NCBI GenBank assembly: GCA_027490755.1
Contig: JAIXXL010000037.1
Coordinates: 4,352-68,351, forward strand
Direction of reading: 5' to 3'
Source of the DNA: Betaproteobacteria bacterium
Lineage (GTDB): Bacteria > Pseudomonadota > Gammaproteobacteria > Burkholderiales > UBA3065
Length of the DNA: 64,000 nucleotides
The notes beneath the pieces were generated by a model. It worked only from the letters and a program-made list of their open reading frames with translations, was not told the DNA's origin and did not search any database. Every line of letters starts with the position of its first letter. Positions within the stretch are counted from its first letter, which is position 1. The translations under genes were made by a program, and so were the position numbers. Of this stretch, positions 3,738 to 60,271 are shown one piece after another.

Positions 3738-3765
3738 CGGAGGGACAAGCTGCCGCGAGCCGGCT

Positions 3766-9976: not shown

Positions 9977-9994
9977 GGCACTCCCTCCGGTCGC

Positions 9995-10558: not shown

Positions 10559-10570
10559 GTCGAGTCCCGA

Positions 10571-12955: not shown

Positions 12956-13021
12956 GGTCGTCCTTTGGGAGTGGCCTGAAGTCGGAAAAGAGAACAATCG
13001 CTGCTGCATGGGCCGCCCGGC

Positions 13022-33928: not shown

Positions 33929-35314
33929 ATGGTCATCGCAAATACAAGAAAAATGACGACTAAAAAAGCTGCACGGGCTGCTCGTGTCAAGGTTACGTAT
34001 GCATTGCTCGCTTGCCTGGCGAGCGCACCGGCGGCTGCCGTAAATTTGCTGGAGGCCTACCGGTTGGCATTGAACATGGATCCTGCCTTTCAAAGCGCAC
34101 GATTCGACCGCGCCGCAGGTGATGAGTATGAGGCGCTGGGCAGAGCAAACTTGCTACCTAATGTGGGAATCAATTACACCCACAGCAGTAACACAGCAGA
34201 TCGCACGATCACGCAATCCAATGGCAACCGGCAAACCGATAATTTGCAATACGACACCCGGATCGCCAGCCTTTCGCTGCGACAGCCGCTACTGAACCTG
34301 GATGCCTGGCAAAGATACAAGGGGGGAAAAGCCCAATCAAAGCTCAGCGAAGCGCAATTCGCGGTGCGTGCTCAAGATCTGATTACAAGGTTGACCACCA
34401 GCTATCTGGAAGCCCTGCTCGCTGAAGATCAACTCCGGCTCGCAATCGCCCAACGCGATGCGTACGATGAAAATCAGCGAGGAAACCAGCGCCTGCTCGA
34501 CATGGGGGTAGGAACCCGGACGGAGATGCTCGAGACAAAGGCGCGATTTGAACTGGCCCGGGCGGAAGTCGTTGAGGCACAAAACAACGTCATCAAAAAA
34601 CGTAATGCACTGGCCATCATTATTGGCCGCGATCCTGATCCGCTGAATGATTTGGCAGACGGACTTCCCGAACTACCTTTGGAGCATGCGACACTCGAAG
34701 AATGGGAAAGTATCGCAAGATCCGACAACCCCGAGATACTGGCGCAACGCTACTCTGTGGAATACGGCAGAACCGAAACGGAGCGATTTCGTGCCGGCCA
34801 TTATCCCCGGGTCGACCTTGTCGCATCCCACAGCCGCAATACCTCTGATTCCCTTTTTGCGTTCAACCAGCAGTCCACCATCAACTCCGTCGGCATCCAG
34901 ATGTCCGTGCCGCTTTATTCGGGAGGCAGCGTAAACGCGCAGACGCGACAAGCTGCTGCCCGGCTTGCTGCCGGACAGGCAGACCTCGACGCCACTTCGC
35001 TCAAAGTACTCCTCGAAGTACGAACACAGTTTCAATTAGTCAGCAGCAGCAGGATTCGCATGACTGCGATGGCACAAGCCGAACAATCGGCGGCTGAAGC
35101 GGTGGAGGCCACTAAAAAAAGTGTGACAGGCGGGCAGCGCGTCAATCTCGACATCCTCATGGCTCTGCAGCAGCTTTTCAAAACACGGCGCGATCTTTCA
35201 GAGGCTCGACACGGGTATTTGCTCGCTTACCTGCGGCTGAAAGCGGCTGCAGGAAGGCTGACCGAGGAGGACTTGGTCAAGTTGTCCGTATGGTTCAAGT
35301 CTGCCGATAGTTGA
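33929..35314 (+). CDS. TolC-family outer-membrane channel (T1SS OMP)
   Basis: 461 aa. Signal peptide '...ALLACLASAPAAA', 'NLLEAYRLALNMDPAFQSARFDRAAGDEYEALGRANLLPNVGINY', two-repeat coiled structure, and 'ARHGYLLAYLRLKAAAGRL'. Confidence 0.9.
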   Translation: MVIANTRKMTTKKAARAARVKVTYALLACLASAPAAAVNLLEAYRLALNMDPAFQSARFDRAAGDEYEALGRANLLPNVGINYTHSSNTADRTITQSNGNRQTDNLQYDTRIASLSLRQPLLNLDAWQRYKGGKAQSKLSEAQFAVRAQDLITRLTTSYLEALLAEDQLRLAIAQRDAYDENQRGNQRLLDMGVGTRTEMLETKARFELARAEVVEAQNNVIKKRNALAIIIGRDPDPLNDLADGLPELPLEHATLEEWESIARSDNPEILAQRYSVEYGRTETERFRAGHYPRVDLVASHSRNTSDSLFAFNQQSTINSVGIQMSVPLYSGGSVNAQTRQAAARLAAGQADLDATSLKVLLEVRTQFQLVSSSRIRMTAMAQAEQSAAEAVEATKKSVTGGQRVNLDILMALQQLFKTRRDLSEARHGYLLAYLRLKAAAGRLTEEDLVKLSVWFKSADS

Positions 35315-39415: not shown

Positions 39416-40804
39416 TTATTCTTCCTTCATTGACGCAGCGATGCGCTTGGTCAGCGGATGCAGGATGTATTGCAGCAGCGTGCGGCGACCGGTCTTGACG
39501 ACAATCTCGACGGGCATGCCCGGCTGCAGCTTGCGGTCACCTAATGTCTTGATTCCCTCAGGCGTAACGGTCACCCGGCCAAGATAATAAGGCGCCACGG
39601 ACGGGTTGTTCGGATCGGCCAGCACGTCAGTAGATACTGAGCTCAATACCCCCGAAACCACCAGTTGCGGGGAGTGCGCAAACGTATTGAAGCGAACGTC
39701 GACCGGGTCACCGGCTTTCACGCGGTCGATCAAATTGGGAGCGATTTTTGTCTCCAAAACGAGTTCCTCACCCTTGGGAACGATATCCATGATCTTCTGG
39801 CCGGGCTGGATAACCGCGCCGACCGCTTGGACGCCAAGGCCGACAACCTGGCCTGCAGCCGGGGACTTGATCTCGACCCGCGCAAGCTCCTCTGAAATCG
39901 CTTTGTAACGTTCGGCCGTCGCCTGGAGTTCCGGTCGAATCTGCGACATCTGGCCATCGACCTCCTTGTCACGCTCTGCCTTCAGTGAAACCATCCGCTG
40001 CTGGATATCGAAGATGGTCTGGGTTGCCTGCGTCTGCGTGGCACGGACCTGCGCCAGCGAGCTGCTGACTTCAGCGACGCGGCGCTCGAGATCCATCTGA
40101 CGCACCAAGGGTACATAACCTTCCTTGACGAGCTCGCGGATCTTGGATAGCTCGTCATTCAGCGAACCAGATTGAATCAGCAGATTCCTCTCGACCGTTT
40201 TAGCGGCCTCGATGTTGGACTCCTGCGTGACGATATTGGCCTTGAGTGAATTCATCGACGCGACCAGCGCTTCGCGGCGAGATTGGAGCAAGGTTCGTTG
40301 CACCTCCATTTGCCGCGACAGTCCCGGATCCCGCCGTGCCGCCTCGACCAGCGGCGGATCGAAAGCGATTGCCGGCGTACCGAGCTGCTCGGCGAGCAGG
40401 CGCGCCTCCGTTGCTTTCAAGCTCAGATACTGCTGGCGCACCATTTCGAAATTCGCCTTCGCCGTGCTGTCACCGAGCCTCAGCAGTGGCTGTCCGGCCT
40501 CGACGAACTGCCCTTCCCTGACCAGCACTTCCTTGATGATCCCTCCCTGCAGATGCTGGACAGCCTTTCGCTTGGTATCGATAGCCACTGAACCAAAGGT
40601 CGGAACACCTTCATCGAGCCCGGCAAATGATGCCCACAGCAGCATGCCGCCAAGGCCGAGGCCCAGCACAACGAAACCAATGCGCGAAATTCTTTTCGTA
40701 TCTGTGGGCAGATCGACGATCTTCTCCGCCGCACCGGGAAGCTGTGCAGGGATGGGCGCGAGATGAGGGTCTTTGCGGTGGGTCAGGCGCTGGTTGGTGT
40801 TCAT
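39416..40804 (-). CDS. T1SS membrane fusion protein (HlyD/AprE/RsaE family), locus 2
   Basis: 462 aa. TM 'IGFVVLGLGLGGMLLWASFAGL', coiled-coil middle, 'TGRRTLLQYILHPLTKR'. Paralogue of 1834-3201. Confidence 0.9.
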   Translation of the reverse strand: MNTNQRLTHRKDPHLAPIPAQLPGAAEKIVDLPTDTKRISRIGFVVLGLGLGGMLLWASFAGLDEGVPTFGSVAIDTKRKAVQHLQGGIIKEVLVREGQFVEAGQPLLRLGDSTAKANFEMVRQQYLSLKATEARLLAEQLGTPAIAFDPPLVEAARRDPGLSRQMEVQRTLLQSRREALVASMNSLKANIVTQESNIEAAKTVERNLLIQSGSLNDELSKIRELVKEGYVPLVRQMDLERRVAEVSSSLAQVRATQTQATQTIFDIQQRMVSLKAERDKEVDGQMSQIRPELQATAERYKAISEELARVEIKSPAAGQVVGLGVQAVGAVIQPGQKIMDIVPKGEELVLETKIAPNLIDRVKAGDPVDVRFNTFAHSPQLVVSGVLSSVSTDVLADPNNPSVAPYYLGRVTVTPEGIKTLGDRKLQPGMPVEIVVKTGRRTLLQYILHPLTKRIAASMKEE

Positions 40805-42528
40805 GCCGTGAAGTCCGGTGGGTTGTTCAATGCCATTCGTGGCTGTTCGCCTTGATTGATCTGACGACCGACGATTCCGTCTTTCAGTGCAACCACGCGA
40901 TCAGCGAGGTCCAGCAGGTTATTCTGATGGGTGATGACGACCACGGTGGCGCCCTGCTCGCGAAGTGTGGTGAGGGCTCGTGACAGCGCCAATTCCCCCT
41001 CCTCGTCCAGATTGGCGTTGGGTTCGTCAAGCACGAGCAGGGAGGGCTGTCCGTAAACGGCGCGTGCCATGGCGAGCAGCTGACGCTGGCCACCGCTGAG
41101 AAACGAGTTCTGCTTGCGAAGAATCGCGTTGTATCCGCCGGGCAGGCGCTGCACGGTATCGTGCACGCCGGCGAGCTTGGCGGCGGCAATCATTTTGTCC
41201 GGGTCGATGGTGCCAAGGCGTACGATATTGTCCGCGACGCTGGCATCGAACAGTTCATAGTCCTGCGGAAGGTAGCCGATTTCGGCACCGAACTGCTCCC
41301 GGTCGAGCGCCGCGATCGGATGACCACCATACAAAACGCTTCCCGAAACTTCAGGCCAAACACCGAGCAAAACTTTACCCAGTGTCGACTTGCCGGAGCC
41401 CGATGGACCGACGATGGCGACGATCTCGCCAGGCGAGAGCGTCAGATTGACGTTATCGAGAATCGGCCGGCTGCGGCCCGGGGCGGTCGCGCTCACGTTG
41501 CGCAATTCAAGAATGCGGTATCCGGGTAACTGGAGATCGCGCACAGCGGGCTTCGGAGCGCCGTCCAGCAGCGCGTCGACACGCCTCATCGCGGCCCAGG
41601 CCGTCATGAAGCTGCGCCAGCTGCCCACCATCGTGTCGAGCGGCGAAGTTGCCCGCGACATCAGCAAATTGGCAGCGATCATGGCGCCGATCGTGAGTTC
41701 GCCCTGAATGACGAGGATGGCGCCGGCCCCCAAGGCCAAAGACTGCTTGAGCAAGGTCACTTCGCGGGTGAGCGAGCTCATCTTCAGCTCGGTATCGTTG
41801 GCTTTTTCATTGATGGCTATTGACTCTCGCTGTCGCGCAAGCCACCGCTGTTTCAGGTGGCCGACCATGCCATGCGCCTCGATCACTTCCGCATTCCTGA
41901 GCTTGCTGTGAACGAAAGCATTGACCTCACGTTCCTCCTCGCTGGCCTCTTCCTTGACGCCGACGATTTTTCGCGAGCTGAGCAGGGCCAGCAGGCCGAG
42001 GTTCAGGACGAAAGCCACCGTGACCCAGCCGAGGAACGGGTGGAGCATGAACATCGCCGCGACATAGAGCAACGTCCACGGTGCATCAAAAAATGCAAAC
42101 ACCGCCTGACTCGTGATCCACTGGCGAACGGTAGCAAGATCAGCGAATGCCTGGGTCGGGTTGCCGGCGTCTCCACGCAACTGCTGATGAAACGTTGCGC
42201 GAAAAAGGGGATCGCTCAGGCGAAGATCGATCTTCAAACCGATCCTGACAACGATCCTCGATCGCAACCATTCGGAAAAGGCGAGCGCCGAAAGAAGGAT
42301 CAGCGCAATCAGGCTAACTGCAGTCAATGTAACCTCGCTTCGGCTCATCATGACGCGGTCGTACACCTGCAGCATATAGAGCGTCGGCGCCAGCATCATC
42401 AGGTTGGCGACCGAAGAGAACAGTGCGACGAGCCCAAGCTCCCTGCGAAAAAGCGCCAAGGTTCTGAGCACGTGTTTTTTCTGCACGCCGGGCAGCGAGG
42501 CGTGCGCGGTCAGGGTCGGATTAGGCAT
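40801..42528 (-). CDS. T1SS ABC transporter permease/ATPase (PrtD/RsaD class), second gene of a tandem pair
   Basis: 575 aa. 'GPSGSGKST', 'LSGGQRQLLAMARAVYGQPSLLVLDEPNANLD', 'VVVITHQ'. The stop overlaps the adaptor start by 4 nt. Confidence 0.9.
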   Translation of the reverse strand: MPNPTLTAHASLPGVQKKHVLRTLALFRRELGLVALFSSVANLMMLAPTLYMLQVYDRVMMSRSEVTLTAVSLIALILLSALAFSEWLRSRIVVRIGLKIDLRLSDPLFRATFHQQLRGDAGNPTQAFADLATVRQWITSQAVFAFFDAPWTLLYVAAMFMLHPFLGWVTVAFVLNLGLLALLSSRKIVGVKEEASEEEREVNAFVHSKLRNAEVIEAHGMVGHLKQRWLARQRESIAINEKANDTELKMSSLTREVTLLKQSLALGAGAILVIQGELTIGAMIAANLLMSRATSPLDTMVGSWRSFMTAWAAMRRVDALLDGAPKPAVRDLQLPGYRILELRNVSATAPGRSRPILDNVNLTLSPGEIVAIVGPSGSGKSTLGKVLLGVWPEVSGSVLYGGHPIAALDREQFGAEIGYLPQDYELFDASVADNIVRLGTIDPDKMIAAAKLAGVHDTVQRLPGGYNAILRKQNSFLSGGQRQLLAMARAVYGQPSLLVLDEPNANLDEEGELALSRALTTLREQGATVVVITHQNNLLDLADRVVALKDGIVGRQINQGEQPRMALNNPPDFTA

Positions 42529-44257
42529 GGGTCTTCTGCCTCGCTGCCTGCTGGGGGGAAATGGTCGGCACGTCCTTGCCCGCCAGTTTGTCGAGCACCA
42601 TATCGCGCGGTCCGTAAATTTTTGGCCTGCCCGCCTTGAGGATCAGCAGTCTGTCGACATAGGGCAGGATACCTTTCCGGTGGCTGATGATGACCACCGT
42701 GGTTCCCCGCTGCTTCAGGTGCTCGAGCGTGTGATGGAGCGCGCGCTCTCCCTCCTGGTCCAGGTTGGAATTGGGCTCATCGAGCACCACCAGCCTCGGA
42801 TCGCCGTAAATTGCTCGAGCGAGGCCGATCCGCTGCCGCTGGCCGCCAGACAGCAGGCCACTGTCTGCGCTGATGAGTGTGTCGTATTGCTCGGGAAGCG
42901 ACTCGATCATGTCGTGCAGCCCAACCAGCTTCGATGCCTCGATGACTTTCGAGCGCTCGATGTCGCCAAACCGACCAATGTTTTCGGCGATCGACCCCTC
43001 GAAGAGCTCGATATCCTGAGGCAGATAGCCAAGGTGGGGGCCTAGCTGTTCTCGATCCCATGCGTGAACATCGGTACCATCCAGCCTGACCGTACCGGCA
43101 ACGGGTGTCCAGACACCGACCAGCAAACGGGCGAGGCTCGATTTGCCGGAGCCGGACGGTCCCATGACGCCGAGGCTGACGCCTGCTTTCAGTTCGAACG
43201 AGACATTGCTCACAACGACCGACTTGCTCCCCGGCGCACGCGCAGTCACCTCCTCGACCGACAGGCTGCCCATGGGGGGCGGTAACTGGACACGCTGCCT
43301 CGACACCGGGTTATCGGCGAGAAAGATCTCCAGACGATCGCAGGCATCGCGCGCCACCGCCACCTGCTTCCACGAACTGATGAGCTTTGCAAGCGGCTGG
43401 ATAGCCTTCCCGCCAAGGATCGAGGCAATGATCATGCTACCGCCATGCGGCGGCAACTCACCCATCAGCGTCAGCACGCAGCCGACTCCCAGCACGAGCG
43501 ACCCCTGCGCGAGGAGCAAAAACTTGGACAGGCAGGCACTTACGCCCTGCGCCTCGGCCACCAGAGTCTGTGCGCGCAGGGCCACCGACTGCGGCTCGAA
43601 CCAGCGCTGCATCAATTTGTCCATCATGCCCATGGCTTGGGCAACCTGTGCATTCTTCGTGCTGGATGCGATGAACATCTGAGCTGCCGTCGTGCTTTGC
43701 TGCGATTCACGGACCAGCGGGTGCACGCGCCTCTCATTGAGCACCCCGACGGCCATGAGCAGCAGTCCAATCCCGATCGCGGTGAGCCCCATGACCGGGT
43801 GCATGAGGTAGACGATCACGAGGAAGAGCAAGCTGACAGGCGCATCCATCAATGCGCCCATGGTCGGTGAGGCGATAAAGCTGCGTACCGTTCTCAGATC
43901 GAGCAGGGCCTGACCCGAGCCTTGCGAGCGCGTCGCGAGGTGTGCATCAAAACTCGCCTGGAGTACACGGTCGGAGAGCTTGGCATTGAATGCGAGAGAC
44001 GCGGCAATCAGCACCCTGCCGCGAATCCATTCCAGCAGGCCCGACATCAGCAGCAGCCCGATCAGCAACAAGGTGACCATACCAAGCGTGTACAGACTAC
44101 GGCTGTTGATGACCGGACCGTAAACATCTTTCATGTAACCTACCGGAGCCAGCGACAGCAGATTGGCCACGACCGTGAACATCATCGCCTTCGCGAGATA
44201 AGGCGACAGCGAGGCGAGCGCCGTGCGCAATTCGGGTTTTTTTTCCGGGTTCTTCAT
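42521..44257 (-). CDS. T1SS ABC transporter permease/ATPase (PrtD/RsaD class), first gene of a tandem pair
   Basis: 578 aa. 'GPSGSGKSS', 'LSGGQRQRIGLARAIYGDPRLVVLDEPNSNLD', 'VVIISHR'. 8-nt overlap with the next ABC gene. Confidence 0.9.
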   Translation of the reverse strand: MKNPEKKPELRTALASLSPYLAKAMMFTVVANLLSLAPVGYMKDVYGPVINSRSLYTLGMVTLLLIGLLLMSGLLEWIRGRVLIAASLAFNAKLSDRVLQASFDAHLATRSQGSGQALLDLRTVRSFIASPTMGALMDAPVSLLFLVIVYLMHPVMGLTAIGIGLLLMAVGVLNERRVHPLVRESQQSTTAAQMFIASSTKNAQVAQAMGMMDKLMQRWFEPQSVALRAQTLVAEAQGVSACLSKFLLLAQGSLVLGVGCVLTLMGELPPHGGSMIIASILGGKAIQPLAKLISSWKQVAVARDACDRLEIFLADNPVSRQRVQLPPPMGSLSVEEVTARAPGSKSVVVSNVSFELKAGVSLGVMGPSGSGKSSLARLLVGVWTPVAGTVRLDGTDVHAWDREQLGPHLGYLPQDIELFEGSIAENIGRFGDIERSKVIEASKLVGLHDMIESLPEQYDTLISADSGLLSGGQRQRIGLARAIYGDPRLVVLDEPNSNLDQEGERALHHTLEHLKQRGTTVVIISHRKGILPYVDRLLILKAGRPKIYGPRDMVLDKLAGKDVPTISPQQAARQKTHA

Positions 44258-49442: not shown

Positions 49443-49864
49443 TTTTTTTAAAATGCCCTTCCCGTTTCCAAGGGTTTGCGCCGCCGCTTGGCGCCGAGAT
49501 TTATGCCGCCGCTGCCATAAATTTCATATGTGATTTTCGTTTCTTCAGTGCAATCGTCACTGTGTCAGCCGTCACAAACACGAAATCTGGCCGGTTTTTT
49601 TCATATAGTTGATGCAGCGTCCGCATGGTCAGCCGATACCCTCCGGGTCAAAACCGGCCGTACGGATGCGTTGACAGGTTGGCAAACTGCGGGACAGGAC
49701 GAGGAGGATCGGGGCGAGCGAACCGTGACTCCGCTCGGTGTCTTTGTGTTGTTTTACCCGAGATCCGAACGGACTTGCCGCCGGTTGAGGCGGGTCGCAG
49801 CCTCGAGAGACCCGGGCCCATGGCACGAGCCGGCGCGGCTCGAGCCTGCGCTGGGGGGCGGCCT

Positions 49865-51040
49865 TCAGACGCGCGGCGTGTCTGAAGGCGGCTTCAATCT
49901 GACAGGGACGGTTTCGACAGCCTCCATCAGGCGATCGCGGCTGAGATGGGCGTACCGGCTGGTCGTGCGGATATCTGCATGCCCGAGCAACTGCTGCACC
50001 TCGTAAAGACTTCGGCCGGCATTGACGAGGAAAGACGCGAGGCTATGGCGAAGATCGTGAATGCGAAGCTCAGGAATGCCCGCCCTTTTACGCGAGGCGT
50101 CCCAGCTGTAATAGATGGATATGAAAGGTTTGCCAGTCGCCGGGTTGGGGAAAATGAAATCGGCACCGCCGCCGGCCTCGGCGTGCAAACGATGCAGCAA
50201 ACGCAGGGCCTCGGCGGACAGCGGCACGTGGCGCACCTTACCCGACTTGGTTTTTGGAATACGCCACAGCCGCAATTCAAAATCCACATCGCACCAACGC
50301 GCATCGAGTACTTCGCGCTTGCGTGCTCCGGTCAGCACCAGATAATGGACAATATGCAGCAACACACTGTTGGGGCTTTGCCGCACACTCTCGAGCAGTG
50401 CCTCCGATTGAGAGGGTGTCAGGAAACGCTCGATGCGGTTGTCGTCCCGGAGATTGAGCAGGTCTTTTGTGGGGTTGCGGCTGACGCCGTCGGCACCCCA
50501 CCGCAACGCGAGCGTAAATCCGTAGCGGATCAATACGAGAAATCTGTTGCAGGTGCCCGGCGCGTATCCCGCTGCCCGCATCTGGTTAACGGCATCGGCA
50601 ATGTCCCCCTGGGTCAAGCCTCCCATCACATGATGCCCCAAGCGGGGAATGACATGATTTCGGATCATCGAGTCGTCTGTATCCCAGCTACGTTTGTAGC
50701 TCTTCACAAACGGCAAATACTGCGAATTGAAAAAATCCTTGACCGTAATACCGGAGAGTACCTGCTCTTGTTGCTTGGGATCGATGCGGTTATGTGCCCT
50801 GCGCAGAATGTCACGCGCTGCCTCGCGTGCCTCGTCCAGGGTAATGACCCGTGCATCTCCCAATGTGATGACGCGCGGCTTTCCCAGAAGGCGGTAGCGA
50901 ACACGGTAATTCATCCGCCCATTGCGCAGGATGTCGACATAAAAGCCTTTCAAGAGGCTGTCGAATATTTCAACATGCGCACGCCCCTCAGGACACGAGC
51001 AGTTTGCCAGTAGTTCAGATGAGAGAAGCGTGGCAGGCAT
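49865..51040 (-). CDS. tyrosine-type site-specific recombinase (P4-like integrase)
   Basis: 391 aa. N-terminal 'GFYVDILRNGRMNYRVRYRLLGKPRVITLGDARVITLDEAREAARD' (P4-int arm-binding type). Catalytic region 'TGARKREV', 'HDLRHSLASFLVNAGRSLYEVQQLLGHADIRTTSRYAHL'. Confidence 0.9.
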   Translation of the reverse strand: MPATLLSSELLANCSCPEGRAHVEIFDSLLKGFYVDILRNGRMNYRVRYRLLGKPRVITLGDARVITLDEAREAARDILRRAHNRIDPKQQEQVLSGITVKDFFNSQYLPFVKSYKRSWDTDDSMIRNHVIPRLGHHVMGGLTQGDIADAVNQMRAAGYAPGTCNRFLVLIRYGFTLALRWGADGVSRNPTKDLLNLRDDNRIERFLTPSQSEALLESVRQSPNSVLLHIVHYLVLTGARKREVLDARWCDVDFELRLWRIPKTKSGKVRHVPLSAEALRLLHRLHAEAGGGADFIFPNPATGKPFISIYYSWDASRKRAGIPELRIHDLRHSLASFLVNAGRSLYEVQQLLGHADIRTTSRYAHLSRDRLMEAVETVPVRLKPPSDTPRV

Positions 51041-51200
51041 ATCAAAGCCTTTTTATCTGCGTTTTGTATCTGTCTATCTGCTAGAAACGTTTTCGTAAAG
51101 CAACTCATCTCAGTGTCTGTCGTTGAAGAAAGAATTTAATCGTCGCAGGGTCGTTGACGTTTGATGTCTGCCAAAAAAATATTAAGAATCAGTCGGTTAG

Positions 51201-54092
51201 GGACACAATTTTTTCACGCTCACTACCAGCGTCGATGGTGTGTCGGGCTCGGCAGGTAACGACACCATCAACGGCGTGGTCGCTGCCTCGGGAACGTTTA
51301 CGATCGGCGATGACATCATGGGCAACGCCGGTACCGACACGTTGAACCTGACCGCACTCGATCATGAGACCGACAGCGTCTTTGCAACGCTCAATGGCGT
51401 TGAGAACGTCAATGTTCGCCAGCTGGGCACGGCAGCAAATGCCTTGGTGATCAATGCTGTCAACTGGTCAGGCGTTGCGTCGCTGTCGAATGCCAGCTCG
51501 CTTTCAGCAACGACCTTGACGGTGACCGGTGCTGAAGTCGGCACCAACATTCGTCTTGAGGGAAACACCGACATCAACGTCGCATTCCGCAACAGCACGA
51601 CGGCGGGCCCGGTGGGCGTCACGCTGCTGAATGCAGGTAGCTCGGATGGCGCGACCACGCTGGCATCGGCCACCGCCAACGGCACTGCAAACCTCGATCT
51701 GGACCAGGCAGACGCAGGCCTGATCTCGGGCGTGAACGTAGCTCTGCAGGGCACGAACCTCGCGCGTCTCGAGGCTGGAAGCAACGTCACGACGTATACG
51801 ATCACTGGCACCGGTAACGCCATCCTCGTAACCGACGACACCATCACCAGCTTCAATGCTGCTGCTGCGCAGGGGAACCTCGATGTGACGTTCTCGGGTG
51901 CTTCGGAACTCACCGTGATGGGTGGTGCAGGCAACGACACTTTCCGCCTCGGCAGCACGCTGAGCAACAGCGACTCGGTCAACGGCGGTGCTGGCACCGA
52001 TACCGTTGCTGTAACGATCAGCGGCTTCAACCGCAACCTGAACACGTCGCTCGTTGAAAATGCAACGGTGGCTTTCACCGAAGCAGCCGGTGGCACCCTG
52101 AATGCATCCGCCTCGACTGTATCGAACTTCACGCTGGCGGCCGGCACGGCAGGTAACGTCGCCTCGCTGGAGGCGGTTGCCAACGGCACGACAATCACCC
52201 TGAATGACGATGACATCGGCAACGTGACGCTCGACTACGCGTCGGGTGCCGCCTCGACGACCCTGAACCTCGGCTCGGTATCGGGCACCGTGGGTGTCGG
52301 TACGCTGGCCATCACCGACGTCGCTAACGTGACCATCAATGCCGTGGGCGTATCGGGTACGGTTGGCGGCTCCATCGGTACCGCGTCGTTTGATTCCGAC
52401 CTGAAGTCGCTGACAATTGCTACCTCCGGCGGTGAAGCCGACCTGGCCATCGGTACCGATAACGGCGACATGGCTCTCGGTGGCGCAACCTCGCTGACCA
52501 TTACGTCGAACGGTTCGGCCGGAATCGCATTCACCAACGTCGATCTGGCCGGCACGGCACTGGCTGCAGTCAGCGTCAATGCCCGCGGAACCAATGCTGC
52601 CGGCATCACGGTGGGCGACGTGAGCGGCGCCGCGATCTCGACAGTCAACCTGTCCGGCACATCGGGCGCTGACGTCACCGTAGGCACCGTGGACTTGGGT
52701 GACAGCGCATCTGCAGCTGCTCGTTCGATCACCATCGCCGTCACGCAAGGTCAAAGTTCGGATGTCACCGTCGGCAACATTACGGTCAGCGGTCAAGGTA
52801 CCCTGAATGTCAACCTGACCCAGAACGGTACGGCCGTTGCCGACATCGGCACGATCACGCTGGTGAAGACGGGCACAGCCGATGCTGTGGCACAAAACCT
52901 GACTTTCGGTGCGGTTGCGGTCGCAGCAAGCGGTGAAGTCGCCATCAATGCCATCGCAGTTGGTTCGGGCACCGGCGCACAGCTGACCTTCGGTAACATC
53001 TCCGTCGGCCAAGATGGCGGCTACAGTGCCGGCAACATCACGGTGAGCGCTGGCCTGATTGATGTTGATGTCTCCTCGCGCAACGTGACGGTTGGCTCGT
53101 CTGCGACGGCCGTGTTTGGCAACATCGTTGAAAACAGCGGTGGCGCGATTGGCAGCGTTTCGGTGACGCTGGGGTCTGATGCCACGGCCACGTTCGGCAC
53201 GGTGACGGCATCTGCAATCAGCACTCACTCGATCATTGCCGCCACGGGCGCAAGCGCGAATTTCGGCAACATGACGGCTGAGCAAACCGTTGGCGCAATC
53301 GAGATCAGTGGTGTCGATGGCGCAGACGTGCAGTTTGGTTCGATCGGTGCGTCTGCGGTCGGTGCGATTGCTGTGTCTGGCGCGCTGGACGTTACGATCG
53401 GAACGATTACCGCAACGACACTTGGCGAGGTCAACGCGACGAATCTCGGTGCTTCGGGTTCGTTCACGATTGATCTGTCAGGCGTCACAAACGCTGTTGA
53501 AGTGAAGCTGGGTGCTGCTGCCAACACCGTGATTTCGGGTCTTGGTAACGACGTCATTACTCTGCGTGGAAACGGTACTGCTGCGGCTGGCAACGATGTC
53601 ATCCGCTACACTGCGACGGGACAAGGCACCGACAACATCATCAACTTTGTTGGCGGTAACGCTGCGTCGGGCGGGGATCAGATTGAGCTGTCTACGGGCA
53701 TTTCCACAGAAACCCTGTTCAACGTCGATGGTGAGGCGATTGCAAATACCGATGCTGCGGATTTGTCTGTTGCCATGACGGCGACCGGCGATACGCTCGT
53801 CGCGACCGACAACGTCATCGTGATTGCCACTGCCATGAGCACGACTGCGGGTATGCTGGACTTCCTTGATGGCGTCACAATGACGACTGCAGCTCAAGGA
53901 TCGGCAACGTATGTGGTTGCTTGGACTGACGGAACCGATACCTACGTTTCGCTGGTCGATGCAATCGGTGCTGGCTCCGCAGGTGCGACCACACTTGCCT
54001 CCGGCGGACACACCTTGTCGACCACGACACTGGCTGTCCTGCAGGGCGTCACCCCGGGCTCTCTCGTTGCAGCCAACTTCGACTTCGTCTAA
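51201..54092 (+). pseudogene. 5'-truncated RsaA-like S-layer paralogue (promoterless, anchor-less cassette; GTG at 51240 is the only in-frame start)
   Basis: Collinear with 55249-58590 from 'FFTLTTSVDGVSGSAGNDTING' (in frame from 51210; TAG at 51198-51200) to the shared tail '...PGSLVAANFDFV'. About 140 N-terminal codons present in the paralogue are absent. Confidence 0.7.
52141..52473 (+). repeat. near-identical 333-bp tract, arm 1 (inverted partner 56904-57236)
   Basis: By-eye alignment to the reverse complement of 56904-57236 shows about six mismatches. The flanking homologous sequence is clearly more diverged. Confidence 0.85.
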
Positions 54093-54136
54093 CTGACGAA
54101 CCGAAACCGGGGCGCAGGCCCCGGGCAGCCTTACAG

Positions 54137-54171
54137 CCCCGCTGGCCACAAGCCGGCGGGGCTCTTTTGTT
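54137..54171 (+). terminator. rho-independent terminator of the truncated S-layer paralogue
   Basis: CCCCGCTGG-ccacaag-CCGGCGGGG followed by CTCTTTTGTT. Confidence 0.7.
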
Positions 54172-54189
54172 GGTGGGCGATTCAGGGTA

Positions 54190-54699
54190 GTGATCCGACA
54201 GAATCTGCTCACCTCAAGCCGCTATTGCGAATGCCTCGGAAACGCAGCGAAGGCTGTGGCTCAGATTTACTTCACATTTGACACCCCGAGCAGAGATTGC
54301 CGCATAGACCTCGTTGGGGTGTCCGACAACAGCCCCGATGCCGGCTTCTTGCAGGCGCGCGGCCGGGGTGGCTGGTTTGCCTCCCCAGAAGCAGCGCTGA
54401 TCCACCTGGCGCACGCATTCGGCTGCCATAGCGACCCGGCACGGGATGACCAGACAATCGACAGAACCATCCTGAAGCTAATTGCCCGGCAACCGGGTCG
54501 CTTCACGGCACGCCAGTTGCGAAACCTCGCCAACCGCCAGACCGGCATCATCCCCTGCGCCGGAGCGCGCTGCGATGCGGCGGTTCGCCGGTTAGTCCTT
54601 GATGGCCATCTCGTATACGTCGGAAGTGATGGTCGCAGCGCCGGACGGCTGGTATTGGCGCAGCGAGCCAATCCGGCCAAGGCGCCTGATGCGGGCTGA
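54190..54699 (+). CDS. hypothetical protein (weak call)
   Basis: 169-aa ORF in the spacer between the two S-layer paralogues. No motif, and competing ORFs exist on the other strand. Confidence 0.3.
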   Translation: MIRQNLLTSSRYCECLGNAAKAVAQIYFTFDTPSRDCRIDLVGVSDNSPDAGFLQARGRGGWFASPEAALIHLAHAFGCHSDPARDDQTIDRTILKLIARQPGRFTARQLRNLANRQTGIIPCAGARCDAAVRRLVLDGHLVYVGSDGRSAGRLVLAQRANPAKAPDAG

Positions 54700-54713
54700 C
54701 CGGAGGATGGCCG

Positions 54714-54998
54714 ATGCCACGCTCGAACCGATGCAAAAACCCTGTGGATGCGCTCCTGAACCCGCCCCATGCCAGGCGGCGCTGCGGCGCGAAGCTGCGC
54801 GGGAAGGATGCCCGATGCCAGCGCTGGGCGGCGATTGGCTTCACCCGCTGTCGGCTCCACGGCGGGGCACCGGGCTCCGGCCGGCCACCCACCCATGGCC
54901 GTACCACGACCCGGCGGCGGCGTCAGTTGGCCGTGATGACGGCGCTCCTGCAGCTACTGGAGGCGCGGCACGGGCACGAGCGCCCTGAGCCGGAATAG
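54714..54998 (+). CDS. small Cys/Arg-rich protein of the HGGxSTG-motif type seen on mobile elements
   Basis: 94 aa. 'RRRCGAKLRGKDARCQRWAAIGFTRCRLHGGAPGSGRP'. Resembles the 'CGAKTRxGxPCxxxAxxNGRCRxHGGxSTGP' pattern, recalled from memory and not searched. Confidence 0.4.
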   Translation: MPRSNRCKNPVDALLNPPHARRRCGAKLRGKDARCQRWAAIGFTRCRLHGGAPGSGRPPTHGRTTTRRRRQLAVMTALLQLLEARHGHERPEPE

Positions 54999-55170
54999 CG
55001 GGCATGCGAGGCGCAGGCGATACGTTTCTAGTAACGGGATCACCCCCCACTTTGGCGTATCCCTACGGTGCAGCCGGAGGCAGCTCGCTCTGGCGCGGTG
55101 GCGGACGGATGGCAAAGTGGTCGATAACGCTCGCTGGCAGGGAGTGAAAGATGAAGTGGCTGAGCGTACA

Positions 55171-55204
55171 AACAAAAAACCCCGCCGGCTTGTGGCCAGC
55201 GGGG
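55171..55204 (-). terminator. rho-independent terminator of the full-length S-layer gene (inverted copy of 54137-54171)
   Basis: The plus strand reads aacaaaaaaCCCCGCCGGcttgtggCCAGCGGGG. The minus strand gives the stem followed by TTTTTTGTT. Confidence 0.7.
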
Positions 55205-55248
55205 CTGTACGGCTACTCGGGGCTTGCGCCCCGGTTTCGGTTCGTGGG

Positions 55249-58200
55249 TTAGACGAAGTCGAAGTTGGCTGCCACTAGGGCACCCGGGCTTACACCACTG
55301 ATCTGCGCCAAAGTCGTGATTGCGACTGCAGAAGCACTCGCGAGGGTCAGAGTGGTGTTTGCACCAGTGCTTCCACCCTCAACGTTGGCGAGCGAGACAT
55401 AGGTGTCACTGCCGTCCGTCCAGACCACAAGATAGTTGGCGCTTGCCGCGTCAGCCAGTGCCGAAGCAAGAGTGCCGTCTGCCTGCAAGTCCGTAACCAT
55501 TGCGGTGAGGCTAGCATATGCGGTAGTCAGAAGGATGACGTTATCGTCAAACGTGAACGCTGCGCCGCTTCCCGTAGAGAAAACTGCGTCGGAGGCGGCT
55601 GCAATCGCCGAACCGTCACCCGCAAAAATGCCGGTAGCGAACTCCGACACGTCAAGTTCAATCTGATCGCCACCCGAGGCAGTCGCGCCTCCGATAAAGT
55701 TGATGATGTTATCTACACCACCATTTGCAGAGACAAAGCGGATCTTGTCATTGCCCGAAGCGGCAGTCCGGCCGCCCAGCAGAGTGATGACATCGTTACC
55801 GTCACCACTGGTGATGGTGTTAGCACCTGCACCCAACTTAATTTCGATTGAATTGGACACGCCAGACAGATCGATTGTAAAGGCTCCGGAGGCTCCAAGA
55901 CCAGTTGCATTGACTTCACCCAGCGTGGTGGTGGTGATGGTGCCGATAGTTACGTTCAATGCACCAGAAACAGAGATTGCGCCGACAGCCGAAGCGTTAA
56001 TTGTGCCGAATGTCACGTCAGCACCATCGACGCCAGCGATTGCGATTGCTCCGACACGACCTTGGCTTGCATTACCACCAGAGAAAGCGGCAATGTTGCC
56101 GAAATCAGCACCTGCTCCTGATCCCGCGACGATCGAGTAAGCCCCAATAGCTGAGGCGGCTACTGCTCCAAACTCAGCCGAGGCGTCCGAACCAAGCAAA
56201 GTCAGCGAAACTGCACCGACCTCGCCCGCGGTGGTGGTGATCGCCCCGAGATCAGCAGAAGCACCTGAGCCCACCGTCAGCGTAACTGACGAGACATCGA
56301 CGTTGACCGTCGCGGTTGCGCTTATCGGACCTGCACTCCAATCGGCGTTTTCACCAACGGTCACGGCCCCGAACGTGATTTGGGCACCGGTTCCGGCGTT
56401 TTGTGCGTCGATGGAGTTGATCGCGTAAGTCGCGCTTGCGCCAACCGAAACCGCGCCGAATGCAAGGTTCAATGGGGCACTATCCGCAGTTACGTTTTGG
56501 GCGCGGTCCAGAACAATCGCCGCGACATCAAGGTCACCGCCAGTGCCGTTTGACGCAACATTAATCGTTGTTGTGCCTTGTGAAGTCACGGTAATGGCAC
56601 CAACGGTCACGTCAGAGTTCGCGCCTTGGGTAATCGAAATGGTAATGTTTTGTGCTGCGCCAGCGGTAGAATTGTTGCCCAAATCAACGGTGCCGACAGT
56701 GACGTCTGCACCCGACGTCGCGTTAAGAACGATCGACGTGATGGCGGAGCCACTGACGTCTCCCACAGTGATATCGGCAGCGTCAGTACCTCTCGCATTA
56801 ATGGTGACACTTGCGAGCGTGGAACCTGCCAAGTCGACGTTATTGAAAGTTATACCAGCCGAGCCGTTCGAGGTCACGGTCAGCGAGGTTGCACCACCAA
56901 CATCCATGTCGCCGTTATCGGTACCGATGGCTAGGTCCGCTTCACCGCCGGAGGTAGCAATTGTCAGCGACTTCAGGTCGGAATCAAACGACGCGGTACC
57001 GATGGAGCCGCCAACCGTACCCGATACGCCCACGGCGTTGATGGTCACGTTAGCGACGTCGGTGATGGCCAGCGTACCGACACCCACGGTGCCCGATACC
57101 GAGCCGAGGTTCAGGGTCGTCGAGGCGGCGCCCGACGCGTAGTCGAGCGTCACGTTGCCGATGTCATCGTCATTCAGGGTGATTGTCGTGCCGTTGGCAA
57201 CCGCCTCCAGCGCAGCGACGTTACCTGCCGTGCCGGCAGCCAGCGTGTAGGCCGTCGTCGTCGAGGCCGAAGCGTTCAGCGTGCCACCTGCCGCTTCAGT
57301 GAAAGTCACGGTCGCGCTCTCGACGTTCGTGGTGTTCAGGTTGCGGTTGAAACCCGCCACGCTAACTGTCACGGTATCGGTACCTGCACCACCATTCACC
57401 GAGTCGTTGTTGCTCAGGGTTGTGCCGAGGCGAATAGTGTCGTTGCCAGCACCACCGGTGACAGTCACATCAGAAACGCCAGACAATGTGATATCAAGAT
57501 TACCGCTTGCGGTAGACGCGTTCAGCGCTGTGATCGTGTCATCAGTGCTGAGATATGCGTTACCTGCGCCGCCGATGTTAAGCGTACGTAGATCGGCACC
57601 CGCTTCCAGCGTGGCGTAGTTGGTGCCAGTCGCCAGGGTTACGCTCATGGTGTCAATCAGGCCAGCATTGTCCAGATCAACGTCGATATCGGCCACACCA
57701 GCAGATGCGAGCGACTCAGCGGTACCACCGCCAGACCCGGCGCTTGTGAGGGCAACAGTCACAGCATCTGTCCCGGAGGTCAGGCCAACATAGTCAAGGT
57801 TTACATCCACTTCGTTCTTGACGCTGATTGTCGGTGTGGTGGACAGGCCTGAGACACGGATGGCAGTCTCATCAAGAGAATTGTCGAACGAGAGAGTTGT
57901 AACGCCTGACCAGTCTTGTGCGTTCAGGGCTAGTGCTGAGCCCGGCCCTGCTTCCAGCAGGCGAAGGTTTATGTTTTCGACATTTCGCAGCGTGACGAAA
58001 GGTGCTTGGCCGCCGCTCATCATATTTAGGGAAAGCGTATCAGTGCCCGCGCCGCCGTCAATGTAGTCGCCAACGTTGAAAGTGCCACTTACGCCGATCA
58101 GGCCGGTGATCGTGTCGTTACCCGACGTTGCCGTCGGGCTGTCCACACTAGTAGTGAGCGTGAAAGTGCCGCCCGTCGTGGTCGTGCCGCTGCCCGAGCC

Positions 58201-58590
58201 GGCATCAAAGGCTGTCGCCGCCTTCGTGTCGTCGATGTTCGCGTCATTGACGTCGACGGCCTTCTTGCCCAGCTTCGTGCCGCCGAAGGTCGACGTCTTG
58301 CCGTCGAAGGCTGCGTTCAGCGCGCCGTCGAGGAAGCGCACCGACACGGCAGTCGCGCCGTTGGCCAGCTGGAAGACGACGGTCTGTTCGCCGTTGGTCA
58401 GGGTGATGGTACGGCCCGAGGCGCGCACGGTGTACTCGGAGGCCAGGCCTTCGATGTTCAGCACGTCGGCGTTGGTGAGGCGACCGGCGATGGTCACGCG
58501 GGTAGCGTCCGCGCCGATGACGTAGGTGTCGGCGGCGTTCGCTGTGTCACGGAAGGTCTTGCGACCCGAAGTGGCAGTAAAAGTCGGCAT
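55249..58590 (-). CDS. RsaA-like S-layer / surface-array protein, T1SS-secreted
   Basis: 1113 aa with AGGAG RBS. No signal peptide. '...GGTFTLTTSVDSPTATSGNDTITGLIGVSGTFNVGDYIDGGAGTDTLSLNM...VENINLR' parallels Caulobacter RsaA '...LSLTTGTDTLTGTANNDTF...GGAGTDVLNW...IETMNV'. Long T/A/G/V/S/N-rich body. Tail is '...YLVVWTDGSDTYVSL...PGALVAANFDFV'. Confidence 0.8.
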   Translation of the reverse strand: MPTFTATSGRKTFRDTANAADTYVIGADATRVTIAGRLTNADVLNIEGLASEYTVRASGRTITLTNGEQTVVFQLANGATAVSVRFLDGALNAAFDGKTSTFGGTKLGKKAVDVNDANIDDTKAATAFDAGSGSGTTTTGGTFTLTTSVDSPTATSGNDTITGLIGVSGTFNVGDYIDGGAGTDTLSLNMMSGGQAPFVTLRNVENINLRLLEAGPGSALALNAQDWSGVTTLSFDNSLDETAIRVSGLSTTPTISVKNEVDVNLDYVGLTSGTDAVTVALTSAGSGGGTAESLASAGVADIDVDLDNAGLIDTMSVTLATGTNYATLEAGADLRTLNIGGAGNAYLSTDDTITALNASTASGNLDITLSGVSDVTVTGGAGNDTIRLGTTLSNNDSVNGGAGTDTVTVSVAGFNRNLNTTNVESATVTFTEAAGGTLNASASTTTAYTLAAGTAGNVAALEAVANGTTITLNDDDIGNVTLDYASGAASTTLNLGSVSGTVGVGTLAITDVANVTINAVGVSGTVGGSIGTASFDSDLKSLTIATSGGEADLAIGTDNGDMDVGGATSLTVTSNGSAGITFNNVDLAGSTLASVTINARGTDAADITVGDVSGSAITSIVLNATSGADVTVGTVDLGNNSTAGAAQNITISITQGANSDVTVGAITVTSQGTTTINVASNGTGGDLDVAAIVLDRAQNVTADSAPLNLAFGAVSVGASATYAINSIDAQNAGTGAQITFGAVTVGENADWSAGPISATATVNVDVSSVTLTVGSGASADLGAITTTAGEVGAVSLTLLGSDASAEFGAVAASAIGAYSIVAGSGAGADFGNIAAFSGGNASQGRVGAIAIAGVDGADVTFGTINASAVGAISVSGALNVTIGTITTTTLGEVNATGLGASGAFTIDLSGVSNSIEIKLGAGANTITSGDGNDVITLLGGRTAASGNDKIRFVSANGGVDNIINFIGGATASGGDQIELDVSEFATGIFAGDGSAIAAASDAVFSTGSGAAFTFDDNVILLTTAYASLTAMVTDLQADGTLASALADAASANYLVVWTDGSDTYVSLANVEGGSTGANTTLTLASASAVAITTLAQISGVSPGALVAANFDFV
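56904..57236 (-). repeat. near-identical 333-bp tract, arm 2 (inverted partner 52141-52473)
   Basis: See arm 1. Confidence 0.85.
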
Positions 58591-58627
58591 GCAATGCTCC
58601 TGTTATAAGTAAGCAACGATTGGTGCC

Positions 58628-58646
58628 GGTACCGGGGTCCGGTACC
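58628..58646 (-). other. perfect 8-bp stem / 3-nt loop hairpin in the S-layer gene 5' leader
   Basis: GGTACCGG-ggt-CCGGTACC, 38-56 nt upstream of the ATG at 58590. Confidence 0.5.
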
Positions 58647-58756
58647 TTGCGGCTAACTGCGGCGGGTTTTTGCCCTTTTATCCACAATTACCCGATAACA
58701 ATAGATGCTTCTTAGAAACATTCCTGTGAACAACGTCACAATTTCTGAAATAGTTT

Positions 58757-60271
58757 TCAAAAGCGGTAGTTCAGCCCCGTCAGCACCTGCGTGATGTCGA
58801 GGGTGGAGAGGCCAATATTCGAGCGGTCGCGAATGCTTTCAACTTCGATAACGATTGCCCACGGGCTGCGCGGGTCGGCGCCCGGCACCCAGACGGCTTC
58901 GAGCTTGGCGGCCCGGCGCTGCACCCAGCGGCGATCGCCGCCGGCCAGTAGCGGGCTGTAGCCCTGCGCGTCGCGACTGTCGGCCAGCAACAGCACGGCG
59001 CCCAGCTGCAGGCCGGGGCGGGCCTGCCAGCGCGCAAACCCGAGCGCTTCGGCGCGGCGGGTGTCGCCGCCGGGGCGGTCGTTGACGGCGCTGTCGTGGC
59101 CGAGGCGCAGCTGGCCGCCCCACTGCCAGTCGCCGGCTGCGCATTCGGCGCCGGCGCCCAGCCACGGAATCTGCGCGTCGTACTCGCTGGCGCCGGCAAA
59201 GATGCGGCGCTCGGCATCGACGCGGGTGCTGAGGCTGCAGCGGCCGGCCGGCAGGCGCACGCCGCCGCTGGCCTGCAGCAGGCTCACGCCGCGCTGGTCG
59301 ATCCGCAAGTCGCGCAGGTGGGCGCCGGCGAACAGCATGGCGCCGGCCACGCCGCGCCAGTCGAGCGGCCGGCGCCAGGTGCCGCTGGCGGCCACGTCCC
59401 ACTGGTCTTGCGCGCTTTCGTGGCCGTGCTGGCGGTGGCGCAGCAGCGCGCTGGTGTCGGCCTGGCGGCCGTCGGCGAGTTCGAAGCGGCGGGTCAGGCT
59501 GGCGCGCACTTCACCGAAACTGTCGGCCCGCGGGCGGTAGCTGGGGTCGAGCAGCAGCGTGGCGGGCACGCCGTCGAGCGACAGGCTCAGCGCCGAGACG
59601 GCCAGCCCGTAGTTGGCGTTGCTGGTGTGGCCGCCGAAGGCGCCGAGCTCGGCCTGCCAGCCGCGCCAGCGGCGGGCGGCCGCCATGCTGCGGCGCACGC
59701 CGGCAATGTCGGCGCGCAGCGCCGGCGGCGGGTCGAACTGCTTGTCGACATGGGCGAGGATCTCGTCGGCGGTGTCGATCTCGCCCAGCCGGAAGTGGGC
59801 AATGGCCAAATCGAGCCAGGCGCCGGCATAGCTGGGCTGCACGAGCACGACGCGCTCGAGCGCATGGACGGCCGCGGCCGGGCGGCCGGCGGCCAGCGCC
59901 ATCGTGCCGAGCAGGTAGTCGTAGTCGGGGTCGCCGACATGGGCAGCTTCGTGCGAGGCGACGAGCTCGAACGCAGCCTCGGCACGGCCGGCCTCGGCCA
60001 GCGCCCGCGCCTGCGCGCGCAGCGTGTCGATGAAGCCGCCGGCGTGGGCGGGGGTGGAGTCGGGCGCGCTCGGCTGTTCGGCCGGAGCCGATGGCGCCGG
60101 CTGTGCCACTGCGAGGCCGGGCACCAACATAGGCACCAGCGTCGGCACCAGCGCGCCGGCGGCAAGGCCCCAGGACAGCAACGCGGCCGGCGCACTGTGC
60201 AGCCAGCGGGCGAGCGCATACCGGCGCGGTCGTGCCGCACCCGATCGGGCGGGGGCCGGGGGACGATGCAC
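58757..60271 (-). CDS. outer-membrane protein with N-terminal TPR domain and C-terminal beta-barrel (DUF560/Slam-like architecture, tentative)
   Basis: 504 aa. Signal-like N-terminus, TPR-like 'AEAGRAEAAFELV..GDPDYDYLLGTMALAAGRPAAAVHALERVVLVQPSYAGAWLDLAIAHFRLGEIDTADEIL', alternating-pattern C-terminal half ending '...QVLTGLNYRF'. Confidence 0.55.
   Translation of the reverse strand: MHRPPAPARSGAARPRRYALARWLHSAPAALLSWGLAAGALVPTLVPMLVPGLAVAQPAPSAPAEQPSAPDSTPAHAGGFIDTLRAQARALAEAGRAEAAFELVASHEAAHVGDPDYDYLLGTMALAAGRPAAAVHALERVVLVQPSYAGAWLDLAIAHFRLGEIDTADEILAHVDKQFDPPPALRADIAGVRRSMAAARRWRGWQAELGAFGGHTSNANYGLAVSALSLSLDGVPATLLLDPSYRPRADSFGEVRASLTRRFELADGRQADTSALLRHRQHGHESAQDQWDVAASGTWRRPLDWRGVAGAMLFAGAHLRDLRIDQRGVSLLQASGGVRLPAGRCSLSTRVDAERRIFAGASEYDAQIPWLGAGAECAAGDWQWGGQLRLGHDSAVNDRPGGDTRRAEALGFARWQARPGLQLGAVLLLADSRDAQGYSPLLAGGDRRWVQRRAAKLEAVWVPGADPRSPWAIVIEVESIRDRSNIGLSTLDITQVLTGLNYRF

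Follow-up and report, generated by a model that had tools for sequence, protein, structure and literature searches.

How do two genes that have diverged over most of their length come to share one short, nearly identical stretch, and what kind of locus holds two such genes face to face? The question is raised by the window analysed here, the whole 64,000-nucleotide stretch of a freshwater Betaproteobacteria bacterium (contig JAIXXL010000037.1 of assembly GCA_027490755.1, positions 4,352 to 68,351), in which two convergent, facing open reading frames (ORFs), genes A and B, encode proteins that we read as surface-layer (S-layer) proteins resembling RsaA of Caulobacter crescentus. The analysis below indicates that the shared stretch is very probably the product of recent gene conversion between the two genes, which are laid out as follows:

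51201 to 54092, plus strand: gene A, an S-layer gene without the N-terminal 'head' of gene B (headless); open frame of 963 codons after the TAG at 51198-51200
55249 to 58590, minus strand: gene B, a full-length, predicted RsaA-like S-layer protein of 1113 amino acids; ORF with its ATG at 58590
52140 to 52473, plus strand: arm of the putative conversion tract in A
56904 to 57237, minus strand: arm of the putative conversion tract in B, codons 452-562

The A and B proteins are 61% identical, with no further relatives of either within the 64 kb, and their DNA is 66.6% identical over all aligned columns. When 51100-54250 is aligned by MAFFT to 55100-58700 in reverse complement, identity per 60-column window is mostly 25-77%, with one discrete block at 95-100%; the identity profile that the initial annotation had proposed as a check thus contains a single block of high identity. 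The block spans 334 bp and holds 6 mismatches (98.2% identity), at positions 52163, 52164, 52247, 52340, 52439 and 52445. Five of the six are synonymous, and the 333-bp tract with about six, mostly synonymous mismatches that had been described by eye is recovered with coordinates within one base. Its edges are sharp, with mismatches at 12 of 37 bases on the left and 9 of 47 on the right, and identity is 71.7% over the 300 nt to the left and 67.3% over the 300 nt to the right, in agreement with the step down to roughly three-quarters identity noted earlier. The arms are inverted, 4.4 kb apart and share exact runs of 82-98 bp. They are in the same codon phase, the tract opening at a first codon position in A (52140, which is 900 bases past the GTG) as well as in B (57237, which is 1353 bases past the ATG). 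An exact 13-nt direct repeat, GGCCGGCACGGCA, occurs at 52139-52151, on the left edge of the tract, and at 52547-52559, and is probably a chance match in repetitive coding sequence.

Using the Nei-Gojobori method, synonymous divergence (dS) is 0.055 in the tract compared with 1.0-1.5 in the flanks, with values of 1.2 and 1.4 where these are colinear, and nonsynonymous divergence (dN) is 0.004 compared with 0.17-0.21. The top segment score is 268-304. When alignment columns are shuffled, the highest value is 33-39 over the full alignment (2000 shuffles) and 85-147 within its best-conserved 810-column block (5000 shuffles); in this form of the GENECONV-type test suggested by the initial annotation, 0 of 2000-5000 shuffles reach the observed score. 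At the mismatch rate of the flanks, 334 bases would hold no more than 6 mismatches with a binomial probability of 7e-37. The drop in dS, the shuffles and the presence of the two copies in one genome all bear out the earlier suggestion of recent gene conversion. In such an event 334 bp of the most conserved part of the core would have been copied non-reciprocally from one gene to the other through ordinary homologous recombination, either by heteroduplex formation or by repair of a double-strand break with the other copy as template. Two reciprocal inversions were also considered as the source of the tract and rejected, since they would swap sequence rather than homogenise it.

With moderate confidence we take A as the donor and B as the recipient, because the tract resembles A in its G+C content at third codon positions (GC3) and in its codon usage, and because of the identity pattern of relatives. 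The GC3 of the tract, 0.775, fits the rest of A. Its codon-usage log-likelihood, +6.8 to +9.1, lies inside the range of A windows (-3.8 to 9.5) and exceeds that of every 111-codon B window (maximum 1.1 in a leave-one-out comparison). Four relatives (P0002, P0004, P0005 and P0006) are 80-82% identical to B just right of the tract and 68-70% inside it, and the A-like relative P0013 is at 82%, 83% and 76% across the tract, this comparison covering 109 residues of the tract and distant relatives only.

No part of the protein is better conserved across the family than the region of the tract, where other members reach up to 83% protein identity, and purifying selection on the protein, or on an embedded DNA or RNA element, might in principle have kept the two arms identical. 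However, synonymous divergence in the tract is about 20-fold lower than in the flanks, falling from >1 to 0.055, which rules out selection at the protein level, and the tract DNA is only 47-72% identical to A or B in the ten other family loci examined, which rules out a nucleotide constraint across the family; no Rfam family matches the tract. Selective constraint is thus highly improbable as the cause. Another conceivable source is an A-type allele of another strain, from which one copy would have taken the segment, rather than from the copy 4.4 kb away. Mosaicism between samples is strong in this family (in 33 protein pairs, a stretch of 60 residues or more is ≥93% identical and the remainder <80% identical), and S-layer cores differ greatly among close relatives, that of the closest related locus, L019, being 42% identical in the tract region. 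Some mosaic breakpoints fall near the edges of the tract (in alignment A1, B residues about 439-457, 562-580 and 920-929), which suggests that recombination breakpoints recur in conserved stretches. Nevertheless, a 98%-identical donor is present in the same genome and an external one would need to match by coincidence, which makes an outside allele unlikely.

The same tract might also be a product of the assembler, which could have collapsed reads of two strains, or of two diverged copies, or joined them into a chimera, given that the window comes from a short-read metagenome-assembled genome and that two of the inner differences vary in resolution among runs. We therefore turned to contigs (k=31) from four public runs, each assembled separately. 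One contig runs from upstream through the integrase gene beside A and the 5' part of A and ends at 52194, 30 bases past the difference at 52164; another, of 4560 bp (52409-56968), joins the 3' parts of both genes and begins 30 bases before the difference at 52439; and a third begins at 57183 and runs into the 5' part of B and the core genome. These three unique contigs have equal depths within each run and co-vary between runs, and the central 274 bp (52165-52438) form a single contig at 1.5-1.85 times the flank depth in all four runs. The co-varying depths, the approximately twofold depth of the repeat and the 4560-bp joining contig thus indicate a true two-copy repeat in one genome. The unique flanks are moreover identical in the four separate assemblies and end exactly 30 bases beyond the outermost differences, whereas diverged copies would have assembled through, and an artefact of assembly is accordingly very unlikely. 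Gene conversion remains the reading that we carry forward.

The anatomy of the two genes bears on which of them is expressed. The relevant features are:

58165 to 58590, minus strand: head of B, the N-terminal 142 residues, not present in A (tblastn homology between A and B begins at B residue 143)
58141 to 58164, minus strand: junction site in B, TTCACGCTCACTACTAGTGTGGAC, encoding F-T-L-T-T-S-V-D at the boundary of head and core
51213 to 51236, plus strand: junction site in A, TTCACGCTCACTACCAGCGTCGAT, at the start of homology to full-length genes
51041 to 51212: AT-rich spacer of 172 nt between the integrase gene and A, with GTCGTT repeats at 51119-51124 and 51150-51155
49865 to 51040, minus strand: tyrosine recombinase of the P4 integrase type, 391 amino acids, divergent from A (Pfam Phage_integrase, 9e-30; Arm-DNA-bind_3, 5.6e-12)

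Gene B is a complete gene of the expressed type, with a promoter region, a ribosome-binding site (AGGAG 7 nt before the ATG), the ATG itself, the 142-residue head, presumed to be an anchoring domain, and a core of about 970 residues; it is likely the expressed copy. Across the family the heads are of several unrelated types, some of them carrying DUF4214. Gene A is a copy of the core alone. As a listed ORF it spans 51240-54092 on the plus strand (950 amino acids) from a GTG at 51240, its first start-type codon; the frame contains no ATG, and no ribosome-binding site was found ahead of the GTG. Four codons after the TAG at 51198-51200, the frame reads TTC ACG CTC ACT ACC..., encoding F-T-L-T-T-S-V-D and matching B from residue 143. 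Judged by this anatomy, A is probably a silent cassette that serves as a reservoir of core sequence. Truncation of A by a contig end was considered and rejected, as A runs on without a break into the 172-nt spacer and the integrase gene in a 25.5-kb contig. The G+C content jumps from 57-62% to 73-76% at the promoter region of B (58600-59000).

Several observations weigh against conversion from a silent A into an expressed B, or against details of it: (i) None of the RNA runs searched for the S-layer gene contains it, and we infer the silence of A from its anatomy. (ii) At two related metagenomic loci (L016/L017 and L106/L107) a headless gene is the only S-layer family member within 15-20 kb, and the headless copies of L016 and L106 may be expressed somehow or may have a full-length partner elsewhere. 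(iii) Only two sequences from this genome are available, and the direction of transfer is drawn from composition and distant relatives. (iv) At 52247 and 52340, the inner differences, the runs disagree on the base, which makes their assignment to one arm or the other uncertain; at least 2 of the 6 differences may be between strains of the sampled population rather than between the copies. (v) The orientation of the 4.56-kb middle piece is formally not fixed by k=31 contigs. As to the last point, the orientation in the assembly is the parental linkage, because P0013, a protein of a different sample, resembles A on either side of the tract (82% to the left and 76% to the right, with 84% and 87% at greater distance) and because GC3 is continuous across the tract along each gene (0.69-0.73 in A and 0.50-0.63 in B).

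The two genes are also alike at their 3' ends, where the initial annotation had pointed to a second highly similar inverted segment. The features on this side of the locus are:

54107 to 54163, plus strand: terminator module of A
55178 to 55234, minus strand: terminator module of B, two hairpins and a T run
54413 to 55168: spacer between the two terminators, 66% G+C, native downstream region of B
49613 to 54412: 4.8-kb block with the integrase gene, A and the terminator of A, absent from L019 (blastn synteny breaks at 49611/49612 and 54412/54413)

The second segment is present (54045-54172 against 55169-55296; 128 nt, 86% identity) and consists of the coding end for the C-terminal secretion signal and a two-hairpin terminator. 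Over the last 60 coding bases A and B are 71% identical, and over the 80 nt past the stop 88%; over the same 80 nt, A and B are 90% and 93% identical to the single gene of L019. Because A and B are no closer to each other here than either is to L019, we read the segment as a conserved module and not as clear evidence of a second conversion. The two-hairpin module (54093-54172 and 55169-55248) recurs at the 3' ends of L014, L016, L019, L020, L101-L103 and L106, conserved in architecture and partly so in sequence (…GCCYCGCAGGTCACAAGCCTGCGGGGCTTTTT); a search of Rfam gave only a chance-level match, on the terminator of B.

Comparison with L019, whose flanking DNA is 83-91% identical to that of the window, also indicates how the locus is put together. 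L019 has a single S-layer gene, at the position of B, and the DNA downstream of that gene is 90.6% identical to 54413-55318, that is, to the spacer and the 3' end of B. The 4.8-kb block that L019 lacks has no direct repeats at its ends, and no tRNA or tmRNA gene is present as a possible integration target. Between the two genes lie a 169-amino-acid ORF without an assigned family (54190-54699) and a small ORF with cysteine pairs and an HGG motif (54714-54998).

Given two inverted genes with near-identical arms, could the locus also rearrange? Judging from their arrangement, the 334-bp arms are a plausible substrate for inversion of the intervening segment, and crossing-over within them would yield in-frame chimeras that join the head and 5' core of B to the 3' core of A, and the reverse. 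The junction sites at the 5' ends of the two cores form a second candidate pair of inversion sites. The junction site has exactly two matches in the window, with none expected by chance, in inverted orientation and 6.95 kb apart; the sites of A and B differ at 4 of their last 9 positions. In the wider family, 9 of 12 loci have ACGCTCACTAC, where the A-B homology starts, without a change, B, L014, L016, L102 and L109 share the 20-mer CGCTCACTACTAGTGTGGAC exactly, and the 21-mer ACGCTCACTACTAGTGTGGAC is identical in B, L014, L016 and L109, with L102 differing at the first base only. The cores of the loci that share ACGCTCACTACTAGTGTGGAC have 44-60% G+C and are 39-70% identical to B in protein sequence. 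Across 367 columns with the same residue, mean codon identity is 0.39, and the first three codons of the site (ACG CTC ACT, for Thr, Leu and Thr) reach 1.0, 0.8 and 1.0, the highest values among 4- to 6-fold degenerate residues apart from one comparable valine column at 0.8. No exact match to the 21-mer site was found in viral contigs.

Headless genes are common in the family, making up about 17 of the 48 aligned members, and they start within a few codons of T-L-T-T-S/N-V-D; in 6 of 7 headless copies the homology to full-length genes begins at (A)CGCTCAC. The integrase beside A has the expected catalytic residues (R, K, HxxR, H, Y), as picked by eye in the translation, and the spacer that separates it from A contains a promoter-like site at 51154-51183 in a promoter scan. 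An integrase gene lies divergently 100-200 nt upstream of a headless gene in four more metagenomic loci, which come from other samples and organisms (L101, L014/L015, L103-L105 and L106/L107). The integrases of L101, L103 and L106 are 49-55% identical to that of the window, or 41-55% when mutual comparisons are counted, and L014 contributes only the N-terminal 47 residues, 47% identical to the window's. The spacer repeats recur in L014, L101, L103 and L106 as GTCGTT(A/T)AACGAC or GTCGTTGA. All five integrase-adjacent headless genes have intact frames of 953-1002 codons, with a proportion of synonymous differences (pS) of 0.69-0.79 and of nonsynonymous differences (pN) of 0.25-0.37. Intact frames combined with saturated synonymous sites and these pN values indicate that the coding capacity of headless genes has been maintained. 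A metagenome scan with the integrase gave relatives of at most 36% identity, and its exact-peptide patterns miss orthologues at 50-55%, so that it is uninformative on the frequency of the module.

These features raise the tentative possibility of a programmed switch, in which the integrase would act on the two junction sites, 51213-51236 and 58141-58164, which face opposite ways, and flip the 6.95 kb between them, bringing core A under the promoter and head of B, the tract being a by-product of having inverted cores so close together. A switch of this kind would add to gene conversion and does not compete with it. The start (A)CGCTCAC shared by headless copies, a junction site whose synonymous positions are conserved well beyond the background, with a 20-mer that is identical across cores <50% identical in protein, the orthologous integrases at the same short distance from a headless gene in five loci with GTCGTT repeats in the spacers, the intact frames of all five of these genes and the abundance of headless family members all speak for it, as do the precedents of slpA/slpB in Lactobacillus acidophilus (PMC3666127) and of vsa with HvsR in Mycoplasma pulmonis (PMC2268961). 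Against it, the four runs give identical junction contigs in one orientation, with no inverted isomer, although contigs drop rare variants; the site of A mismatches that of B at the positions given above; and P4-type integrases with an arm-binding domain usually integrate or excise elements rather than invert them. In addition, the module lies at differing places elsewhere and in L014 is direct relative to the flanking operon, which cassette integration fits equally well. Action of the adjacent integrase on the junction sites, with exchange there, may thus be entertained but falls short of being probable, and integration of a cassette at the junction site is an alternative topology that fits L014. 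An integron was rejected (with the NCBIfam models of integron integrases the protein reaches 56 and 28 bits, where the cut-offs are 265 and 435, and the enzyme has the arm-binding domain of the P4 type), as was a shufflon of the R64 Rci type (only two copies of the site in 64 kb).

Put together, it is conceivable that freshwater bacteria with RsaA-type S-layers carry a dedicated recombination module composed of an integrase of the P4 type, GTCGTT repeats resembling arm sites and a junction site (ACGCTCACTACTAGTGTGGAC, about 21 bp) at the exact boundary of the presumed anchoring head and the lattice core. The module would swap whole lattice cores of 950 residues behind a fixed promoter and head, by inversion, which the layout of the window permits, or by cassette integration, and the expressed gene would in addition receive short conversion tracts from headless cores.

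What the proteins are is less obvious from their sequences than from predicted structure and context. Neither A nor B matches a Pfam or NCBIfam family above threshold, and a phmmer search against PDB sequences gave no match at E values up to 1. A search of protein collections returned 133 relatives, nearly all metagenomic, two of which were named 'S-layer protein' by JGI and several of which carry DUF4214 or RTX repeats; in a scan of a genome collection with the family alignment, the matches listed were all distant, at 27-44% identity. An AlphaFold2 model of B, built with 48 family members as input, is all-beta with a mean predicted local distance difference test score (pLDDT) of 81, and is confident from residue 140 on, with most of the core at pLDDT >85 and the head at <50. 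The six top Foldseek matches of this model in the PDB are all Caulobacter RsaA (E values of 2e-8 to 5e-5, probabilities of 0.99-1.00), with low TM-scores of 0.14-0.21 and 16-18% identity in the structural alignments. The secretion genes concerned are:

39416 to 44257, minus strand: type I secretion genes, a HlyD-type adaptor and two ABC exporters (Pfam)
33929 to 35314, plus strand: outer-membrane factor (Pfam)

These genes lie 7-20 kb upstream of A, along with sugar-modifying (glycosylation) genes, and in relatives the S-layer gene is flanked by an equivalent secretion operon. The C-terminal ...GALVAANFDFV is nearly invariant across the family, and the HemolysinCabind model scores 20.7 bits against a cut-off of 23. 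Because of the Foldseek matches to RsaA and the adjoining type I secretion genes, we read A and B as RsaA-like S-layer proteins, predicted to be exported by the neighbouring type I system. The likeness to C. crescentus RsaA thus lies in the six top structural matches and the adjacent secretion genes, and the difference in the lack of a sequence-level match by phmmer and in the low TM-scores. The motif at the start of the A and B cores may resemble the start of the lattice-forming C-terminal domain of RsaA. C. crescentus is not known to have more than one rsaA gene or a cassette system.

The S-layer and secretion locus as a whole, at about 28-58.6 kb, has a lower G+C content than its surroundings. 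Elsewhere the window contains a second ABC/HlyD export pair and several large proteins of secreted type:

95-3201, 3766-5157, 6675-8228, 8231-12979, 17568-20897 and 31024-33513: genes of the second export pair and of the secreted-type proteins

The secreted-type set comprises a cadherin/Big_9 protein, an RTX trypsin-like protease, an ALTTAQ-repeat protein, an RTX/FG-GAP/He_PIG protein and a 1582-amino-acid ORF without an assigned family.

Conversion between paralogous surface-protein genes is well known, and the tract by itself is an ordinary, very clean example of it. What appears novel is the setting, with an S-layer gene as recipient, a headless gene as likely donor, a recurring integrase and a site conserved at synonymous positions. 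The anatomy (a complete gene, an inverted headless copy, a shared site and an adjacent recombinase) appears to match the logic of known switches and suggests that the locus may be a system for changing the outer coat. A literature search brought up the systems of Lactobacillus, Campylobacter and Mycoplasma but no report of a module like this for S-layers exported by a type I system. The locus thus looks like a variant form of cassette-based surface variation, and its arrangement recurs in several uncultured freshwater lineages. If the module works in the proposed way, cassette-type surface variation, known from pathogens and lactobacilli, would extend to the RsaA-type S-layers of environmental Gram-negative bacteria, and free-living bacteria would have programmed surface variation, presumably driven by phages or grazers. 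Such a locus, with two sites, one recombinase and a visible coat, would also be a simple test system for the pressure that phages and grazing exert on surfaces.

The closest parallels to this arrangement come from organisms with quite different envelopes. In L. acidophilus, inversion of a chromosomal segment puts a silent S-layer gene behind an active promoter (PMC3666127, citing Boot et al. 1996). As here, slpA and slpB are two opposed S-layer genes a few kb apart, one of them at an expression site and the other silent, that are nearly identical in part and diverged elsewhere. Their products, however, are Sec-secreted proteins of a Gram-positive bacterium unrelated to RsaA, and in the present locus the putative silent copy lacks the whole N-terminal domain and not just a promoter, a P4-type integrase gene is adjacent and inversion was not observed. 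In M. pulmonis, inversion at a site within the coding region joins a promoter and 5' part to silent 3' genes of the vsa family (PMC2268961). The likeness extends to silent genes that have no promoter, ribosome-binding site or 5' part, to the placement of the site in the coding region and to a tyrosine recombinase gene beside the locus. Unlike the genes described here, the vsa genes encode lipoproteins rather than S-layer proteins, and silent genes are numerous at their locus; HvsR, a small enzyme of the Xer-like kind, lacks an arm-binding domain, and its activity has been shown experimentally, whereas that of the integrase here is only predicted.

Campylobacter fetus offers a Gram-negative comparison. 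Its sap genes encode type I-secreted S-layer proteins with a conserved N-terminal part that binds lipopolysaccharide and a variable remainder, and several homologues recombine into chimeras. There, a segment carrying the promoter is inverted between homologues that are themselves complete, by way of a conserved 5' region of about 600 bp, mainly in a RecA-dependent manner. The sap system thus shares with the present locus a type I-secreted S-layer of a Gram-negative bacterium, and differs in that neither a dedicated integrase nor a headless cassette is known to take part.

For the tract itself, the nearest counterparts are pilS to pilE in Neisseria, vls in Borrelia (described in PMC3585125) and msp2 in Anaplasma, in which segments are converted from silent cassettes into an expressed surface gene. 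As in those systems, a short internal tract would have been transferred non-reciprocally from a copy without expression signals to the expressed gene. Here only one cassette and one tract are seen, nothing points to frequent conversion, and the locus yielded no G4 element or other specialised initiator. The host also differs, being a freshwater bacterium, for which phages or grazers, rather than antibodies, are likely to be the selective agents.

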